Assembly: GCA_965261545.1 (NCBI GenBank)
Contig: CBDHDF010000011.1
Location: 384,001 to 448,000, forward strand
Length of the DNA stretch: 64,000 bases
Origin: Bdellovibrionales bacterium
GTDB taxonomy: Bacteria > Bdellovibrionota > Bdellovibrionia > Bdellovibrionales > UBA1609
Reading direction: 5' to 3'
Below are positions 54,001 through 63,000 of this stretch, one piece after another. How positions within the stretch are numbered: the stretch's first letter is position 1; every line of letters begins with the position of its first letter. Position numbers: made by a program.

Positions 54001-57000
54001 TCTTCCAAACCTAAGCATTTGCACCTGGGGCATTGATTCAACGTATTCGTCTTCATATTCGTATCCTTTCTTGATATTGATCTTGTAAATGCTCATATCC
54101 AGAGGATCGGAGCATACGTTTTGTTTATTGTCCTTAATCATTTCTGTTATGTAGTTTCTGACTCACCATCCTCTATCAGTTCAAAGGAAATCACAAAATG
54201 GCCAAATTTATACTTTCCCGTTCCTAAAGAGACAAAAATTGTCAGTCGTTACATTTAATTATTTTCTTTAATTTAAATTCTTTTCTTCAATTTCTTGGGT
54301 CGATAGAAATCAAATTCCAAACCTCCAAAATAATTAATTTAAAATTTCACCCCTCACGTTTATAGTTGCGAAATCTATGCCAACTTTATTTGTGAGATAT
54401 TTCAATGACTTAGAGAGAAATAGAGTCGAATGACGAAAAGGAAAAAACTTTTTTAAGTACGAAATAAAGTACATAAAAAAAGAATTTATATTTATTTAAT
54501 ATCTTATAAATATATAGTAATGATTGATCAGATTATTTTTTAAGAAATTTATCTTGAAATAAATCATCTTTTATTGTATAATAATTTGTACATCATTTGA
54601 AAAATACTCCACAAAGAATTGAGATCAAGTTACGAAAGACATGAAAGAATAACTGGAGAGACAATTGAGTGAAATATTGAAAGATCCATTAAAAAGCAAA
54701 GTCGTCAGTGTGCATGTTATAGAGGACAGCAAATTAGACTCTGAACTCATTCAAGATCTCATCAAAGTAGAACTAAGAAAGTGTGGATTGACCCCCAAGG
54801 TTTCAGCCACATTCAAAGAAAAAAGCTCTTATAGTGCTTTAAATCAAAATAACTATGATATTGTGGTTTTTGATATTGATCTAGATCGAAGAATGGCAGG
54901 GATTGACCTTCTTGGTATGTTTACTAAAAAGGTACAGTTTCCGATCATCTCCTCTTGCCGTGAGTCAGATGATATCGTAAAAAAAGCTTACAGTCTAGGT
55001 TGTGAGCACTTTTTAAACAAGCCTATCAAGCAGTCAAAGATTGCCCATCTGGTCGATCAATATACAAAGCAAATAAACTCCAAGAGCATCTTGCGAGTTA
55101 TAAAATCAAGATACATGACCCAAGATGAAGAGACCCTCAGTGAGCTTAATAAAGTCACTTCATCGAAAAATGCTCATTTATTTGGACCCACAGGGGTAGG
55201 CAAACAAATCGTCGCTGAACTTATTCATCATATACATTATGGCAACTCAAACCCCTTTGTTGAAAAGAACTGTTCATCTATCACAGAGTCTCTTGCGGAG
55301 TCCTTCCTTTTCGGCCATGAAAAGGGAGCCTTCACAGGTGCCAACAACCAAAGAAAGGGTATCTTTGAGCTTGCCAAGGGAGGCACCGTCTTCTTAGATG
55401 AAATCGATAAGACATCAAAGTCTTTTCAAGCCAAGTTATTAAAAGTTATAGAGAAAAAGGAAATTCAAAGGGTTGGATCTGAAAAATCAACACCTGTTGA
55501 CTTCTCGCTGGTCACAGCAAGTAGTACAGACCTTAATTTCCTTGTGGAAAACGATAAATTCTTACCTGATCTTTGGGAAAGGCTTCAGGTGGAGGTCATT
55601 CACTTGAAACCTCTGAAAGAACGTCCCTTGGATATAGAGCTACAAATGCAGAATTTCATTAGGCTTCATGAGTCAGGAAGACTGTTTGTCATCTCTGAAG
55701 AAGCCCATAAGTTTTTGATGAGTTACCACTGGCCAGGAAATACAAGGGAATTAAAAAACGTTGTGGACAGCTTACAAAGGAAGAATATCAAGATTCTTGA
55801 ACTCAAAGACCTTAAATTCTTACAAAAAAAATCCATCAGACAGCAATATGGCCTCGTCAATCAACAAATACTTCAGGCCATGGAACAAAATGGACTCAAA
55901 AATGTCGTCAATCAAATATGCCGGGAAGCAGTTCATCATTTTTTCACTCAAAATGATGGGAAAAGAAGAATCACAATGAGGCAGCTTGAAATTAGCTCAG
56001 ATACTTTATACAGACACTTAAAAGAAAATATGGGGTAAAAAATGAATTTAACAAAAGAAGAAATAAAGCACGATTTGAAAAGAAATATAAGTTCTATTTT
56101 ATCTGGAACAACAATGATAATGAATAAGATTCCTAAGATAGATATTTATATTCGAGAAACAATAGAAGAAATAGAAAAGCAATGTGAACAAACATTTAAA
56201 CTGTTAGACATTTTCACGGAAAGTAAAGATGAAAATAAGAAAAAGCCAAAGGAGGTATAAAATGAGAAAAATATGGACCATACTTGTTGCTATGCTCGGA
56301 ATGTCGAGTAATGCATCTTCCGCATACTCTGGTTGCTATGATGAAGCCATGGAAGTTTCAACAGAAAGCAACCTTGAAGTGAGTCTAGAACAAAGTGCAG
56401 AAGAAGATTTTGATGAACTTGATAGAATCATGGATTTATACCCACATGCTAGTATTGATGAAAAAGTTGGAATGAGCTTTAAAGCACATAGAATAGCGGA
56501 TCGTCTTGAGCGTCAAGGTTTTGATGTTGCTGATTCTATGTCTCAATCATCAAGAACATGTGACTATTGTGTGAAACCATAACATTCAATCATTATTGAT
56601 GGCATAAGAAAGGATATAAATTCAAGAATGAAAAATAAATTTATTTATATTATTTTATTTATATTCATTATTGTTATAACTTATAGTTTCATTCGTGAGC
56701 AAAGGAATAAGTCAATGTTGATTCAGACAAATTTAATAAGTTTTGAACCAGAAGACACAATGGACCCCACAAGACTCAGGTTTGTCCAAGAATATTTTGT
56801 GCTTGATAACGTCACGGCAAAGCTCACTCAAGTGGGAGACGATGGTGAATATAAAAATGATCTTGCTGAGCATATTAGTTTCTCTGATGATAAACTCACC
56901 ATAGATGTTCAATTAAAGAATGATGCTAGATTTAGTGATGGAAGCCCTATTTTAGCTCAAGATGTGGCTCAATCATTCAAAAGATCCATATTATGGGGAG

Positions 57001-60000: not shown

Positions 60001-63000
60001 AAAAGAAAGCGTATACCTCAATGCCATTAACGATCTGGACCTCCTCACCAAGCAATTGATTGAAGACTCTAGTGAGTATGCAAAAAATGTCAATCTCGTG
60101 GGCTTAATGGATGCCCTCGTCGACATGAAAGAAGTTGAATTTCAACAAGGGCCTAAATCTAAGATATTGTTGAATCCTCAGTCTAAGAATTTGAAGATTA
60201 AAACCAATCCCACAAAATTAAAATTTGTTCTTTCCAATATTATCAACAATGCAAGGGAGGCTTCTAAGCATGATGATCCTTGTGAGATTCAAATCAAGTT
60301 GACAAGAGGGGGGCCAGACGCCTTCATTGAAATTGAAGATAACGGGAAAGGTATCAAAAAATCAGACCTCAAGAGAGTTTTTTCCCGAGGGGTGAGCATA
60401 GACAAGCCTGGAGGCAACGGCTGGGGACTTAGTGATGCTAAAAAATTTATTGAAAGCCAAGATGGGACCATCGAGATAGATTCAGAACTCGACAAGGGAA
60501 CCACTGTTAGAATAAAGCTCCCCATATTTCTCTCAAATTTTCAATCTCGTGGGCAGGCTCCCTTTGACCATGTTTTGGTGGAAGACTACAAGCTCAGCCA
60601 ACTTCTATGGCTTGGAAAGGCCGATAGCAAGAAGCTCAACTTTGCAGCCTTCTCCTCACCCTCAGAATTTTTAGAGAATATGGAACTGGTGAGTCCCAAT
60701 GCCACCTTGTATATCGACTCTCACTTTCCCGATTTTCCCATGCGTGGCGAAGAATGGGCCAAGGAGCTTTACAATAAGCACGGATTCAAAGAAATATATA
60801 TGTGCTCTACATCCTCCATCGACATCACCGACATGCCATGGGTCAGAGGGTGCGTTGCCAAGCATAAGCCTTTTGAGATTGTCACTACAACCTCTGTTTC
60901 TTTAACATCTCATGTAAAGAAAACGTTCCCGTGGAGTACCCTATGAAAAAAGTAGGTGCATGTTTATTAATTTTACTTGGAATTGTATCTTTTATCTCTT
61001 TAATTTTACTCATTGCCATATCTTTTGATACATCTTTTGTAAAAAGAATATGGTCAGTTCTTCTATTTGATGAAAGCGCCATGAGTGCTCTAATTTCATG
61101 GTTAATTCTCATATTTTTTATGCATGCTCTTTTTAGTATTCGCTATGGAGAATCTCGAATTAGAAAGGCATTAGATTTTACAAACCATGAATTAAAAAAA
61201 ATTGGAACATCTAGAAATTGGGCACAAACTGAAGAAAATTATCAAAAATTGTGTAATATATTTTATCTTCCTCGTTGCGAAATACTCTTGCATTACTGGG
61301 AAGAATTTTCTGAATCTGTAGTATATGATGCCATAGAGTCAGAAAACAGTGAATACTCCTCTGAGTATGTAAACACCGAGCCTGCATCTAACTTTTTCAA
61401 CGCCCAATCCATTATCGTGGAGTACGACGATTGGGCACTAAACAAAACTGGTTATTTTGAAGGAATACCAACCATATTAACCGGACTAGGAATCCTTGGC
61501 ACATTTATTGGAATCATTCAGGGGTTACCCGAATCATTAAATTTAGAAAAAGATCTTCCAGCATTCTTAATTGGAATGAAAGGTGCTTTTACTACATCGA
61601 TACTTGGACTCTTTACTGCAATTACATTTACACTTATCGAAAGAATGTTATTCAGTCGTTTAGAACAAAAAGTAACAGAACTATCATCTTGCCTTGACTC
61701 TGCACTTCGTCGAAAGACTCAACAGGATTTTTTGGGGCGTATTGAAGAATATTCACGCAAGCAATACAGTGCTACACGTGAGCTCGCAATGGAGATTGGT
61801 CAAGAAGTTGTTAAAGGCATTACTGGTGGTGGAATAAGCACTGTTGAGATCTCTGACTCGGTTAAACAAGGGGTGACTGATGGGTTTGAAAGACTGTCAA
61901 AAATTCTGCAGAATCTAAGTTCTGCTCACGAGGATTTTGTCAAATCTGCAAATGACCTGAATGAGAAATATCGATCGATTGGACTCAGCGTGTCTAACCT
62001 TAATTCTGCATCCACAATCTGCACTAATACATTTGAAGTGAGCGCAAGGGAATTCTCATCGACAGCATCAAGTATTAGTGAGGCAAACAAGAGTTTGATA
62101 AGTACCACACTCGAAACTACCAAAAATATTTCAGAACAAAAATCAGTAGTTGAGTCTCTTGCAGCAGCATCAGTTTCTACAACAGAGAGTCTAAGTCAGC
62201 TTGCCACCACCAGTACACGAGTGGTCCAAGAGTATCAAGTTTTGTATAATGATTTTTCCCAAAAGGTAAACGCATTCAATTCTGAGAACAATAAGTCCCT
62301 TGAAGCTAACTTGAAGCTATTCGACCAAGAACTTGCAGGTGGAATGAATAAATGGAGAGATAACATAAACGCATTAAAGTTCATGCTTGAAGACTTGCAG
62401 CCTACGGTGGAAGAGTTAAATCAAAGCCTAACACAATTCAATAAAAGTCAGCGAGAATCTCAATAAATGAGTAAATATAAAGCATCTTACACAAAGAAGG
62501 GCCAGAGCGACAGATTTGTCTGGGTTGCTTATTCCGACCTTAGTACAGTCTTGATGCTCTGCTTTATTCTCATATTTATAGTTTTGGCCGTTATCAATCA
62601 TCGTAAAACAGAAGAATCTCGTAAATTAAAAGACTTTGTAGATTCGACTACATTTGAACGTGAAAAAATATTAGATAAACTTGAAAATGTCATTAAGGAA
62701 GTTAGAAAAAGCCCTCAGTGTGAAAACACATTATGGAATGTTAACAGAGGACAAAACTCGATTCAAGTCTATTTTAAAAAGAAAGGTGCCAAGAAACTCG
62801 AATGGTTCAAAATGGGTGAAGAGCACTTAACTATTGATGGAAAACGATGCATAATTTTATTCGCAAAGCGGTGGTTATCAACTATTTATCTAGATCCACT
62901 GCGAGAAAAAATTTCACAACTTATTGTTGAAGGACACACAGATAGCAGTCGGTTATACGGATGTGTGGATATGAGGTATCCGGATAGAAGTAACTTTCTT

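Follow-up and report, generated by a model that had tools for sequence, protein, structure and literature searches.

What is sensed by an operon in which a sigma54 response regulator and a histidine kinase enclose a small secreted protein, a solute-binding protein (SBP) and a YcaO enzyme, all beside the operon of a type IV secretion system (T4SS)? We addressed this question in a window of 64,000 nt from a Bdellovibrionales genome (C11:384001-448000; as the window begins at C11:384001, the contig offset is 384000 and not 416000). The operon looks like a previously undescribed switch that is driven by a self-made signal.

Organization of the operon and its surroundings

The survey's finding of a six-gene module at window positions 54665-60946 is borne out by the ORF listing and Pfam in coordinates, order and families. 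All six ORFs lie head-to-tail on the + strand:

54665..56038, + strand: sigma54 response regulator (Pfam Response_reg and Sigma54_activat)
56042..56260, + strand: 72-aa ORF, possibly HPt-like (position kept in L009 and L087)
56262..56582, + strand: 106-aa small secreted protein, candidate YcaO substrate (RBS, family alignment, AF2)
56628..58184, + strand: OppA/PrgZ-like family-5 solute-binding protein, permease-less (Pfam SBP_bac_5, 2e-23)
58181..59191, + strand: compact stand-alone YcaO of 336 aa (PF02624, AF2, Foldseek)
59198..60946, + strand: hybrid sensor kinase (HATPase_c 1e-19, TM segments, hhalign)

Upstream, a VirB4/TraC T4SS operon is transcribed divergently, and ZorAB comes after the kinase. 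The surrounding features are:

42836..54056, - strand: divergent T4SS operon (family matches and homologues), with the following members
first in the T4SS operon, - strand: 136-aa Cys-rich ORF
53367-53642, - strand: 91-aa sigma-70 region-4-like ORF
52851-53264, - strand: conserved 137-aa ORF
52409-52867, - strand: TrbC-like pilin
52097-52408, - strand: TraL/VirB3-like
49365-52100, - strand: VirB4/TraC
45653-46753, - strand: VirB9-like
44328-45656, - strand: TrbI/VirB10-like
42836-44335, - strand: FtsK/TraB-like ATPase
35815..60876, no strand: 25-kb backbone colinear with C2:11010-35593 (blastn of C11 against C2, 84-98% nt identity)
60931..63291, + strand: zorA and zorB, Zorya-type defence, variable cargo (PADLOC ZorA 1e-28, ZorB 3e-29)

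In other genomes, homologous small T4SS genes adjoin the modules as well. The shared backbone stops 70 nt before the kinase stop codon, and past that point the cargo differs. For the window module the claim that defence genes follow as cargo holds, since PADLOC places zorA and zorB directly after the kinase (the NCBIfam ZorA/ZorB matches are under their cut-offs); the ORF after zorB has no match and extends past the window edge. The 25-kb backbone yielded neither a relaxase nor an integrase, and the term "conjugative" is therefore unproven for it.

The YcaO enzyme and the binding protein

The YcaO protein has no TM segment and scores 46.6 bits with PF02624, for which the cut-off is 25.7; its start overlaps the stop of the SBP gene by 4 nt. 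AF2 yields a minimal YcaO fold (pLDDT 94), for which the top Foldseek matches are LynD, MJ1094, Ec-YcaO, McbD and Mk-YcaO. Profile matches in the PDB are MJ1094 (5e-17) and McbD (1e-16), and the NCBIfam SagD model scores 36.6 (cut-off 219). In an alignment of 56 homologues E71, G119, E136, E139 and E219 are invariant. The four glutamates correspond to the ExxER and ExxER-type motifs in MJ1094, whose structure contains ATP. With the ATP/Mg glutamates retained, the enzyme looks catalytic. The genome encodes exactly four YcaO genes, every one of them within an A module, and neither TfuA nor SagB. Missing from the operon are a leader-recognition partner (RRE/E1-like) as well as a dehydrogenase, a protease and an exporter, which counts against a signal made by the cell itself.

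A hydrophobic segment at residues 1-25 gives the SBP an N-terminal membrane anchor, its orthologues have lipoboxes, and no permease is adjacent. The best PDB matches of the family profile are AapF, 5u4o, PrgZ (4faj, 8e-34) and OppA proteins, with the pheromone receptor PrgZ as the third best solved match. Judged by its sequence, the binding protein is of the oligopeptide-binding type.

The small secreted protein

The ORF of the small protein was initially called at 56229-56582; an AGGAGG located 7 nt 5' of 56262 favours the latter start (106 aa). The protein has an N-terminal Sec-type signal, a helical hairpin and a floppy 20-aa tail ending in ...TCDYCVKP (AF2: helices 2-17, 43-59 and 65-84; residues 85-106 form a coil tail at a pLDDT of about 54), and matches nothing in Pfam or NCBIfam. 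A hydrophobicity heuristic and visual inspection took the place of a dedicated predictor in calling signal peptides.

Across loci these proteins form one family, in which a signal peptide is combined with a helical hairpin, a conserved motif and a floppy tail. A small ORF lies immediately 5' of the SBP gene, or overlaps it, in 20 of 24 testable SBP loci; its absence from the other four (L053, L059, L067 and L079) counts against a self-made signal. The C-terminal motif reads [ED]-L-[RKE]-x-x-G-hydrophobic-hydrophobic, then 4-10 residues, Cys, 1-3 residues and the end. Of 22 proteins, 14 have a tail Cys within the last 6 residues and 18 have one within the last 14 (chance expectation 0.062 and 0.138, respectively, at a Cys frequency of 1.06%). 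The remaining four keep a Thr/Ser or Gly-rich end, and this lack of the Cys likewise counts against a self-made signal. Such a Cys (or Ser/Thr) tail is the kind of candidate substrate that YcaO could modify. In the radical-SAM/SPASM modules, the small proteins end in a conserved C-terminal Trp-Pro and not in Cys.

It had been objected that the small proteins are long for RiPP precursors. Long they are, though a precedent exists in the bufferins which, according to PMC11626156, derive from RiPP precursors of 80-120 aa with a Sec signal, modified on Cys before export. The same source describes an MNIO enzyme that converts Cys to a heterocycle in the cytoplasm, with a product that stays in the periplasm (PMC11626156). 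The unusually long precursor and the N-terminal Sec signal are thus shared, whereas the bufferin enzyme is MNIO plus DUF2063 instead of YcaO, several Cys sit in a folded core instead of a C-terminal tail, and the function given there is copper buffering, described without a binding protein or kinase (PMC11626156).

Regulator, kinase and 72-aa ORF

The regulator (Pfam Sigma54_activat 3e-49, Response_reg 1e-10) consists of REC, an AAA+ enhancer-binding domain and a C-terminal HTH region; the NCBIfam NifA, NorR, AtoC, NtrC and LuxO models all match far under their cut-offs (LuxO 186 against 800). In the kinase, hydrophobic segments at residues 5-31 and 141-174 give two TM segments around a periplasmic domain of ~110 aa, followed by an H-box, HATPase_c (1e-19) and a C-terminal receiver-like domain (residues ~446-582). 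Pfam alone misses this tail, which hhalign aligns with a receiver-domain profile (probability 97%, E 5e-11). On this domain composition the protein is a hybrid kinase, which goes beyond its earlier description.

The 72-aa ORF begins 4 nt past the regulator stop. At the equivalent place L009 and L087 carry an ORF of 71-77 aa with one invariant His, while no counterpart was found in other loci; neither Pfam nor the PDB gives a match. From these data we infer that it is possibly a short phosphotransfer (HPt-like) protein, which might turn the system into a phosphorelay.

Sigma54-type promoter sites

The genome encodes rpoN, and a weighted scorer finds a candidate site between the T4SS operon and the regulator:

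54367..54382, - strand: candidate sigma54 -24/-12 promoter TGGCATAGATTTCGCA, facing the T4SS operon

It lies 283 nt upstream of the regulator start on the opposite strand and scores 17.0 of 19.5, which is weak alone given the genome background of 0.175 per kb. It has TCGC at -12, and the first ORF on the T4SS side is some 300 nt away, both of which count against this reading. Sites of equivalent position and orientation occur in A3, A4, C2, L056, L062 and L087.

We scanned the regulator-upstream regions of 17 modules (-600 to +60, 11,038 nt in total). A site scoring at least 17 is present in 13 of the 17 (background 0.17 per kb) and one scoring at least 18.5 in five (background 0.015-0.05 per kb), although related pairs (A3/A4, C1/C2, L056/L057 and L058/L061) reduce the 17 regions to fewer independent cases. 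The earlier statement, based on a strict scan, that no sigma54 promoter lies beside the T4SS operons is therefore superseded by these candidate -24/-12 elements. Sites face divergent genes in eight modules, and these are T4SS genes in the window, A3, A4, L056, L062 and L087. Perfect-consensus sites are directed at T4SS-type genes in L056 and L062, and perfect or near-perfect ones at the regulator operon in L058, L061, L069 and L073. Two observations count against this pattern: the closest outside relative (L009) shows no more than a TTGG variant at the corresponding position, and in L067, L082 and L086, where the T4SS is collinear, no site is found between the kinase and the T4SS genes.

Sister modules and spread across Bdellovibrionota

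Within the genome, tblastn gives VirB4-like matches at nine places, in agreement with the nine VirB4-type clusters of the survey, and gene order and Pfam families of modules A3, A4, B1-B3 and C1-C3 are as it stated (the B2 regulator and the B3 radical-SAM gene are each split by insertions). The radical-SAM/SPASM modules represent a parallel cassette in the same frame. Proteins of A1 (on C2) are 95-100% identical to those of the window module. The reported divergence gradient is reproduced for A3/A4 (RR 86, HK 80, YcaO 74, SBP 64 and small protein 54%) but does not hold throughout: conservation in L069/L073 is highest for the SBP.

Compact YcaO genes were detected by profile matches in 89 of 401 Bdellovibrionota genomes, and 40 loci were retrieved and examined for gene order. 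SBP, YcaO and kinase genes are collinear and adjacent in 20 of these according to HMMs, and in 22 when L076 and L078 are added by inspection. Only seven of the 40 have T4SS genes at a distance of up to about 8 kb. The module is consequently no speciality of conjugative elements, as had been proposed, but widespread in the phylum. On metagenome contigs L008/L009 the full module adjoins a VirB4 gene, at a protein identity of 38-49%. These data support the small protein, SBP, YcaO and kinase as a conserved co-transcribed unit; its SBP-YcaO-kinase part is a phylum-wide family in the predatory Bdellovibrionota that is new here.

Proposed mechanism and alternatives

Our preferred reading, held tentatively and at somewhat less than an even chance, is that of a binding-protein-dependent phosphorelay whose ligand is made by the cell itself, with YcaO modifying the tail before export and the regulator driving the T4SS. 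Cytoplasmic YcaO would, with ATP, act on the floppy C-terminal tail by activating one of its backbone amides, most likely giving a thiazoline from the conserved Cys (or else a thioamide or ATP-dependent cleavage). Sec would then export the modified protein, and the membrane-anchored OppA/PrgZ-like protein would recognise its tail in the periplasm, either attached or clipped as a short peptide. The binding protein might gate the hybrid kinase via the ~110-aa periplasmic domain. From the kinase His the phosphate would pass to the kinase's own receiver domain and on to the sigma54 activator, possibly with the 72-aa His protein as an intermediate. The activator would turn on sigma54 promoters, of which the one in the window is directed at the divergent T4SS operon; chromosomal relatives have it ahead of the module itself, an arrangement that would lead to autoinduction. 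We infer every biochemical step of this chain, as well as its ligand and regulon. The earlier idea of a modified-peptide signal is partly supported: it gains from the conserved unit, the Cys tail and the sigma54 sites, but its tie to conjugative elements is not exclusive. A signal made and sensed in one periplasm must carry information somehow (release, competition); none is evident, which counts against this reading.

An unlikely alternative is that the SBP senses outside peptides (for instance from prey or cell-wall/protein turnover), and that the modified small protein is an accessory held in the periplasm (competitor, set-point inhibitor or co-receptor). Family-5 binding proteins usually bind free oligopeptides, nickel or opines, the hosts are predators, and a periplasmic protein of ~85 aa is not easily released from the cell. 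Moreover, the SBP is 58% and the small protein 29% identical between L069 and L073, unlike a co-diversifying signal-receptor pair. The A3/A4 order of divergence (small protein, SBP, YcaO), in contrast, fits paired specificity; translational coupling joins the small gene to that of the SBP in nearly all loci, the tail motif is conserved, and a dedicated ATP-dependent maturase would be left without a required role.

Rather improbable is a periplasmic metal or redox sensor, in which a thiazoline/thiol tail chelates metal or reacts with oxidants and a NikA-like SBP reads its loading state. CxxC-type tails (window, L009 and L050) and a Cys pair (L051) would suit such a role, as would the nickel and metallophore binders among SBP homologues and the bufferins, which PMC11626156 presents as Sec-exported, Cys-modified periplasmic metallophores. 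Most tails, however, hold a single Cys and no further conserved ligand residue, the operons lack metal efflux or uptake genes, and metal homeostasis genes are not among the outputs seen, which are T4SS genes or the module itself.

Slightly less probable again, it might be argued that YcaO has another target, for instance the SBP or the kinase at a stage preceding or following membrane insertion, or is a non-catalytic ATP-sensing partner of the kinase, with the small protein as an unrelated periplasmic adaptor. Of all links, that between YcaO and kinase is indeed the tightest and the most widely found, the two genes overlapping or adjoining each other in most loci; L060, L070 and similar YcaO loci have kinases without SBP or small ORF, and MJ1094, the closest solved relative by sequence, acts on a large protein and not on a peptide. 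Yet the window SBP contains no Cys, the conserved Cys tail is carried by the small protein, and the invariant catalytic Glu residues argue against a non-catalytic role.

Finally, a RiPP with an antimicrobial or predatory role, of which the flanking two-component system would do no more than regulate the production, as in lantibiotic clusters, is very improbable: YcaO is best known from antibiotic RiPPs (see the McbD, LynD and TruD matches), but the operons lack an exporter, immunity gene and leader protease, the Sec signal would place the product in the producer's own periplasm, and the permease-less SBP would have no role.

Comparison with known systems

The preferred phosphorelay with a self-made ligand comes close to LuxP-LuxQ-LuxU-LuxO of Vibrio, where a periplasmic binding protein gates a 2-TM hybrid kinase, a relay leads to a sigma54 regulator and an own enzyme makes the signal. 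Binding protein, hybrid kinase, sigma54 regulator and the proposed self-made signal are shared, and the NCBIfam LuxO and LuxQ models were matched in the module search. LuxP belongs to another binding-protein family with AI-2 from LuxS as ligand, whereas the SBP here is OppA-like, the presumed signal enzyme (YcaO) and substrate are encoded within the operon, and the HPt step (LuxU) is putative. The AioX-AioS-AioR type also combines an orphan permease-less periplasmic binding protein with a kinase and a sigma54 enhancer-binding regulator, which drives a neighbouring operon; it senses an external small molecule and is not known to include a maturase or a co-encoded secreted protein. In ChvE-VirA-VirG (Agrobacterium vir T4SS) a periplasmic binding protein modulates the kinase and the regulator turns on T4SS genes, an arrangement similar to ours in its components and proposed output, but ChvE binds plant sugars, VirG is OmpR-type at sigma70 promoters and no self-made ligand is known.

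Peptide control of transfer is found in Gram-positive elements (pCF10 PrgZ with cCF10/iCF10, ICEBs1 RapI-PhrI). The likeness lies in an own permease-less OppA-type SBP, a small Sec-exported pro-peptide with C-terminal signal, and transfer genes as output. Those peptides are unmodified, imported and read by cytoplasmic receptors, as opposed to a Gram-negative host, proposed periplasmic reading via a kinase, a YcaO and a module that also occurs away from T4SS. Nisin-NisK/NisR and AgrD/AgrB-AgrC pair a ribosomal peptide and dedicated modifying enzyme with a histidine kinase encoded alongside them, autoinduction being frequent, and resemble the module in the proposed modified ribosomal peptide read by an own-locus kinase; they are Gram-positive, use dedicated exporters, and their kinase senses the peptide directly, with no binding protein, sigma54 or YcaO chemistry known to take part.

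Among YcaO enzymes, MJ1094 and Mk-YcaO form a thioamide on McrA, and McbD, LynD and TruD form azolines. Fold and ATP/Mg-binding glutamates are common to all of these and the enzyme described here which, like MJ1094, is compact and free of a fused partner domain, though about 50 residues shorter. It differs from them in having no TfuA, SagB or E1-like partner and in the location of its gene inside a two-component operon.

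Composition of the operon

The six ORFs that the survey placed at window 54665-60946 are indeed found there, head to tail on the + strand, in a genome of 4.3 Mb that is divided over 11 contigs and is 96.8% complete. The window corresponds to C11:384001-448000, and the offset supplied along with that position (subtract 416000) is wrong: the place to which it leads, at about 22.6-28.9 kb of the window, consists of IS-type repeats without a module, and window 22619-26555, considered as the module in case that offset were right, turned out to be an IS-type repeat instead. The operon is composed as follows.

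First ORF of the module, +: sigma54-dependent response regulator (Pfam REC and Sigma54_activat, 3e-49)
Start 4 nt past the regulator stop, +: 72-aa ORF
Start at 56262, +: small protein of 106 aa, the candidate YcaO substrate; start backed by an RBS
After the small protein, +: solute-binding protein (SBP) of family 5 (Pfam 2e-23) with an N-terminal hydrophobic anchor; permease absent nearby
Start overlapping the SBP stop, +: YcaO protein of 336 aa, without TM segment
Last of the six ORFs, +: kinase of 582 aa, in which hydrophobic segments 5-31 and 141-174 flank an outside loop of about 110 aa

The YcaO enzyme

The YcaO superfamily model (PF02624) matches the 336-aa protein with 46.6 bits, against a cut-off of 25.7. 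Four matches above cut-off are found when the whole genome is scanned with this model, every one inside one of its YcaO modules (A1-A4, of which A1 is the near-identical copy of the window's module on C2 and A3/A4 hold a second YcaO type). In an alignment of 56 homologues five residues (E71, G119, E136, E139 and E219) never vary, and conservation reaches at least 90% at three others (E74, R75 and R140). A profile alignment maps the conserved residues onto the corresponding ExxER-type motifs of MJ1094, which has been solved with ATP and is also the best sequence match. The AF2 model of the enzyme (pLDDT 94) is related by Foldseek to seven YcaO structures with probability 1.00, and fits LynD, MJ1094, E. 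coli YcaO, McbD, Methanopyrus YcaO and MusD over the full length (TM 0.52-0.61). Together, the invariant glutamates, the motif alignment with MJ1094 and the predicted fold point to a minimal YcaO enzyme that is probably active.

As to its chemistry, the SagD-family model TIGR03604 is not reached (36.6 bits against a cut-off of 219), the operon genes include no SagC/SagB-type partner (E1-like/RRE protein or FMN dehydrogenase), and neither the SagB-type model TIGR03605 nor TfuA (PF07812) has a match genome-wide. No recognition partner for the enzyme is evident. TfuA-independent relatives exist. The adjacent candidate precursor does have the Cys/Ser/Thr residues in its C-terminal core that are expected for an azoline-type TOMM. 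Candidate reactions are azoline formation, thioamide formation and ATP-dependent cleavage (the title of entry 7u58), among which sequence does not discriminate; conservation of the Cys in the small protein favours an azoline.

Binding protein, kinase and 72-aa ORF

The SBP profile matches oligopeptide binders best, the solved structures being ranked in the order AapF, 5u4o, PrgZ (the enterococcal pheromone receptor, third with 8e-34) and OppA proteins. At its C-terminus the kinase is extended by about 115-135 aa, a feature shared with many relatives and absent from the type-2 YcaO modules. Compared with receiver domains by hhalign, these tails reach a probability of 97% (E 5e-11); Pfam alone gives no receiver match there.

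The 72-aa ORF recurs in the same position in two outside loci, L009 and L087 (three loci in all). A single His is the same in all three, and its surroundings (HDLK/HDFKG) would be in keeping with a phosphotransfer (HPt) protein. The ORF has no Pfam hit at E up to 10 and none in the PDB profile search, and an HMM of the three copies finds no further copy among 40 loci.

The small protein and its C-terminal tail

A small ORF directly upstream of or overlapping the SBP gene is present in 20 of the 24 loci that could be judged; none was found in the other four (L053, L059, L067 and L079). Sixteen of the 20 have a signal-peptide-like N-terminus according to our own hydrophobicity heuristic, two have an uncertain start and two were accepted by inspection. 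The proteins are very divergent (10-29% identity to the window copy), and nevertheless share a C-terminal consensus: [ED]-L-[RKE]-x-x-G followed by two hydrophobic residues, then 4-10 residues, a Cys and 1-3 residues to the end. Examples of such endings are TICF, SICW, SRCY and RPCL; the window copy ends in TCDYCVKP. The tail Cys lies within the last 6 residues in 14/22 proteins and within the last 14 in 18/22 (0.06 and 0.14, respectively, by chance), and the remaining four retain Thr/Ser or a Gly-rich end.

According to AF2 (mean pLDDT 69) the window copy consists of a signal helix, a disordered stretch, a helical hairpin at 43-84 and a coil tail with pLDDT of about 54. Its putative Sec signal combines a positively charged N-region with a hydrophobic helix (AF2 helix 2-17). 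The conserved motif is located at the end of the hairpin in this model, so that the predicted arrangement is reminiscent of a recognition element with a short core behind it. In the radical-SAM modules, where the module frame is unchanged, the small proteins have a Cys-free mature part and both end in a Trp-Pro element, which fits a maturase acting on the C-terminus.

Distribution in the phylum

A word-indexed search of 5.8 billion clusters with the YcaO as query returned 18 proteins, all of 242-356 aa. A profile built from 56 members is more productive: among 1.84 billion sequences it matches 819 representatives (50% identity clusters) at E <=1e-30, and the best 150 of these 819 clusters are 242-383 aa long and nearly all matched end to end. 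Within the Bdellovibrionota the YcaO profile has matches in 89/401 genomes (80/337 high-quality ones), often several per genome. Four of ten sampled representatives belong to named clusters, two of them called 'YcaO-like family protein' (Bdellovibrionales bacterium; Halobacteriovorax sp. DA5) and the other two 'hypothetical protein'.

To survey the neighbourhoods, the 40 best matching places in other genomes were taken, each with about 16 kb of surrounding sequence, and neighbours were classed by HMMs of the module proteins. In 20/40 loci the genes for SBP, YcaO and kinase lie side by side in collinear order; two more (L076, L078) have the same order with an SBP-like lipoprotein that is too divergent for the HMM, giving 22/40 in total. 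The kinase is divergent in L050, and SBP plus YcaO occur with no kinase in view in two loci. Eleven of the 40 loci have a sigma54 regulator ahead of the unit. The stretches taken include T4SS genes in 7/40, six of which show a sigma54 regulator by HMM and the seventh (L082) a partial one at the contig end. On two marine metagenome contigs (L008 and L009) a VirB4 gene adjoins a complete module, whose proteins are 38-49% identical to those of the window.

About a dozen loci differ in that the YcaO gene stands beside a convergent regulator and kinase, with no SBP. This second context was seen in L060, L063, L066, L070-L072, L077, L080, L081, L083 and L088: downstream of the YcaO gene come, in convergent orientation, a response regulator of 211-250 aa and a multi-TM kinase of about 540 aa, and upstream of it lie a conserved ORF of about 220 aa and one of 536-580 aa. 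This would seem to be another kind of YcaO-kinase pair, likewise undescribed. In the type-2 YcaO modules of two other genomes (L056:8852-11808 and L057:4922-7896), two SBP genes in tandem separate the small protein from the YcaO.

Sister modules in the same genome

VirB4-like genes were recovered by tblastn at the nine places counted in the survey. Three of them appear in two or three tblastn pieces (C11:218552-220996, C11:260583-263125 and C10:122582-125133) and could be copies with a frameshift or an interruption. The two modules with the second YcaO type (A3/A4), the three radical-SAM/SPASM modules (B1-B3) and the three OMP/Ank modules are likewise borne out by their gene order and Pfam families.

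Two of the radical-SAM modules are disrupted: an IS21-like insertion splits the regulator of B2, and an inserted 506-aa ORF (L015:2392-5242) splits the radical-SAM/SPASM gene of B3. Therefore only B1 is intact among the three.

The survey had also described a gradient of divergence between A3 and A4, which we reproduce (86% identity for the regulator, 80% for the kinase, 74% for YcaO, 64% for SBP and 54% for the small protein). As a general rule such a gradient does not hold: it is seen in A3/A4 and roughly in L056/L057, and fails in L069/L073 and L058/L069.

T4SS genes and candidate sigma54 sites

Divergently upstream of the module lies a T4SS operon with a TrbC-like pilin, TraL/VirB3-like, TraC-type VirB4, VirB9-/VirB10-like and FtsK/TraB-like ATPase genes. 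Its VirB4 matches the TraC-F-type model at 7.5e-78, and TrbC, CagX and TrbI domains are also present. Of the relaxase, coupling protein and integrase that a conjugative element would also have, the FtsK/TraB-like ATPase is the only candidate: relaxase and integrase families give no hit among the backbone ORFs (35709-54056), although several ORFs there are hitless and may include a novel relaxase. A 25-kb backbone (35815-60876) is common to the window and the near-identical C2 copy and ends 70 nt before the kinase stop. Beyond that point the cargo of the two copies differs. In the window, zorA and zorB follow the module (ZorA 1e-28, ZorB 3e-29); a Zorya defence system would also have accessory ZorC/D or ZorE, and the ORF after zorB has no hit and is cut by the window end.

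The genome has rpoN (425 bits). We scored GG-N10-GC sites against TGGCAC-N5-TTGCW (maximum 19.5) in 17 modules, over a stretch of 660 nt spanning each regulator start (11,038 nt altogether); the genome background is 0.175 sites per kb at a score >=17 and 0.015 per kb at >=18.5. A site scoring >=18.5 is present in 5/17 modules and one scoring >=17 in 13/17, though related pairs are included, so the independent count is lower. No site of that score lies upstream of the regulator in L009, L067 or L086; in L009 the corresponding place holds a TTGG variant.

Sites on the strand opposite to the regulator occur in eight modules (window, A3, A4, C1, C2, L056, L062 and L087), at 180-285 nt upstream of the regulator in seven and at 518 nt in C1. 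They face T4SS-operon genes in the window, A3, A4, L056, L062 and L087. The L056 and L062 sites both score 19.5; that of the window is weak:

54367-54382, opposite to the regulator: sigma54-type candidate site, score 17.0 of 19.5

Own-strand sites just upstream of the regulator are found in six modules, namely L058, L061, L069 and L073 (18.5-19.5) together with L057 and B1, which suggests that chromosomal copies of the module may be autoregulated. Between the kinase and collinear T4SS genes in L067, L082 and L086 there is no sigma54-type site. Over the whole window TGGCAC-N5-TTGC with up to two mismatches gives 48 hits against 41 expected; with no window-wide enrichment, only the position-specific analysis of sites is informative. 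Repeats in the 608-nt divergent intergenic region are AT-rich low-complexity pairs only, and no activator site can be named. We consider it marginally probable that the T4SS is the output of the module in this window.

A 16-mer that is a near-perfect -24/-12 look-alike, TGGCATTGTGATTGCT, occurs at window 2714-2728 and at about 20 other places in the genome, on a repeated IS element. It accounts for about 20 of the 66 top-scoring sites genome-wide, and is so a trap for promoter scans.

Proposed mechanism and alternatives

We propose that the module senses a ligand of its own making. The cytoplasmic YcaO would modify the tail of the small protein, Sec would export the modified protein, the SBP would read the tail or a clipped fragment of it, and the hybrid kinase would relay the signal to the sigma54 activator, whose target would be either the module's own genes or, in T4SS elements, those for transfer. 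That the architecture of the module is one of signalling is near certain. That YcaO acts on the small protein we regard as rather probable; that the SBP reads the YcaO product falls just short of an even chance, and the chain as a whole is tentative, somewhat more doubtful than that single step. Its weak points are that neither an exit route of the ligand from the cell nor a recognition partner for the YcaO is evident and that the promoter site of the window is weak. A prediction of the complex between the SBP (27-518) and the mature small protein (22-106), based on our own alignments, scored 0.05 (mark 0.32) and carries no weight either way.

Among the rivals is a sensor of external peptides, in which the small protein would only modulate the response. 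The module might also sense metal or redox state, the enzyme might have another target than the small protein, or the product might be an antimicrobial.

A bolder version of the self-made ligand would be a Gram-negative pheromone system with a modified, porin-permeable peptide, which we consider unlikely. YcaO would make a thiazoline from the near-terminal Cys of the Sec-exported pro-protein, the last few residues would be clipped off as a small porin-permeable modified peptide, and the permease-less OppA/PrgZ-like SBP would capture this peptide in the periplasm and gate a LuxQ-like hybrid kinase, from which phosphate would pass via HPt to the sigma54 activator. The chromosomal circuit would autoinduce, and each T4SS element would have a 'pherotype', based on YcaO type 1, on YcaO type 2 or on a radical-SAM variant, by which it decides when to build its transfer machine.

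Comparison with known systems

The architecture is like that of LuxPQ-LuxU-LuxO, including a hybrid kinase with a C-terminal receiver, and like that of AioXSR. PrgZ/cCF10 and RapI-PhrI are alike in element-encoded peptide control of transfer via an OppA-type protein, ChvE-VirA in a binding protein that gates a T4SS regulator, nisin and agr in a modified peptide read by a kinase, and bufferins (PMC11626156) in long RiPP precursors that are exported by Sec. The module belongs to none of these: the equivalog models are far below their cut-offs (LuxO 186 against 800, LuxQ 48 against 1200), the SBP is of a different family from LuxP (Pfam assigns family 5, and no LuxP-likeness is seen) and the operon genes include no MNIO enzyme or cytoplasmic peptide receptor.

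In the literature outside subscription journals we found no description of a YcaO within an SBP/kinase operon; PMC10352776 offers only a kinase-regulator pair in one Bacteroidales cluster. The kind of system would be modified-peptide signalling via a two-component system, with an enzyme class, export route and host group that are all unusual. If true, the proposal would explain what the minimal YcaO enzymes, a large and uncharacterised family, do. RiPP chemistry would then reach beyond antibiotics into signalling within a two-component operon, the rare RiPPs that are exported by Sec would gain a second enzyme class, and T4SS expression in predatory bacteria would have a testable input signal. 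Should the peptide be diffusible as well, Gram-negative bacteria would have here an unusual instance of quorum sensing by a modified peptide. Among the annotated family members at least one comes from a named Halobacteriovorax strain, so bench work may be possible if the strain is obtainable.

Other features of the window

Near the head of the T4SS operons that adjoin modules lies a region-4-only ECF-sigma-like protein of 77-118 aa (SigW model 4e-6):

Window 53367-53642, -: region-4-like protein
L056:15239-15472: region-4-like protein
L062:1277-1534: region-4-like protein
L009:5371-5727: region-4-like protein

It is accompanied by a conserved protein of about 115-137 aa without known family (window 52851-53264). 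At the left edge of the backbone shared with C2, a Mom-family protein is encoded at 35709-36719 on the - strand (1e-11), and the C2 homology begins about 100 nt inside the 3' end of this gene.

A defence island at 11483-17763 comprises a TIR-domain protein, a type I RM system with hsdM, a RhuM-family gene and a nucleotidyltransferase/substrate-binding pair with hsdS fused to one of its halves. The hsdR of this island is truncated to 134 aa, and IS-type genes lie further downstream.

An IS21-like element, made up of a 124-aa ORF, a 531-534-aa ORF without Pfam hit and an IstB ATPase, is present in the following copies:

Window 24530-26300: IS21-like copy
Window 4416-6379: IS21-like copy
L014:1995-4743: IS21-like copy

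Copies that are 99.8-100% identical occur at two places on C2, and one of the window copies is interrupted by an ISL3 transposase (26602-27867).
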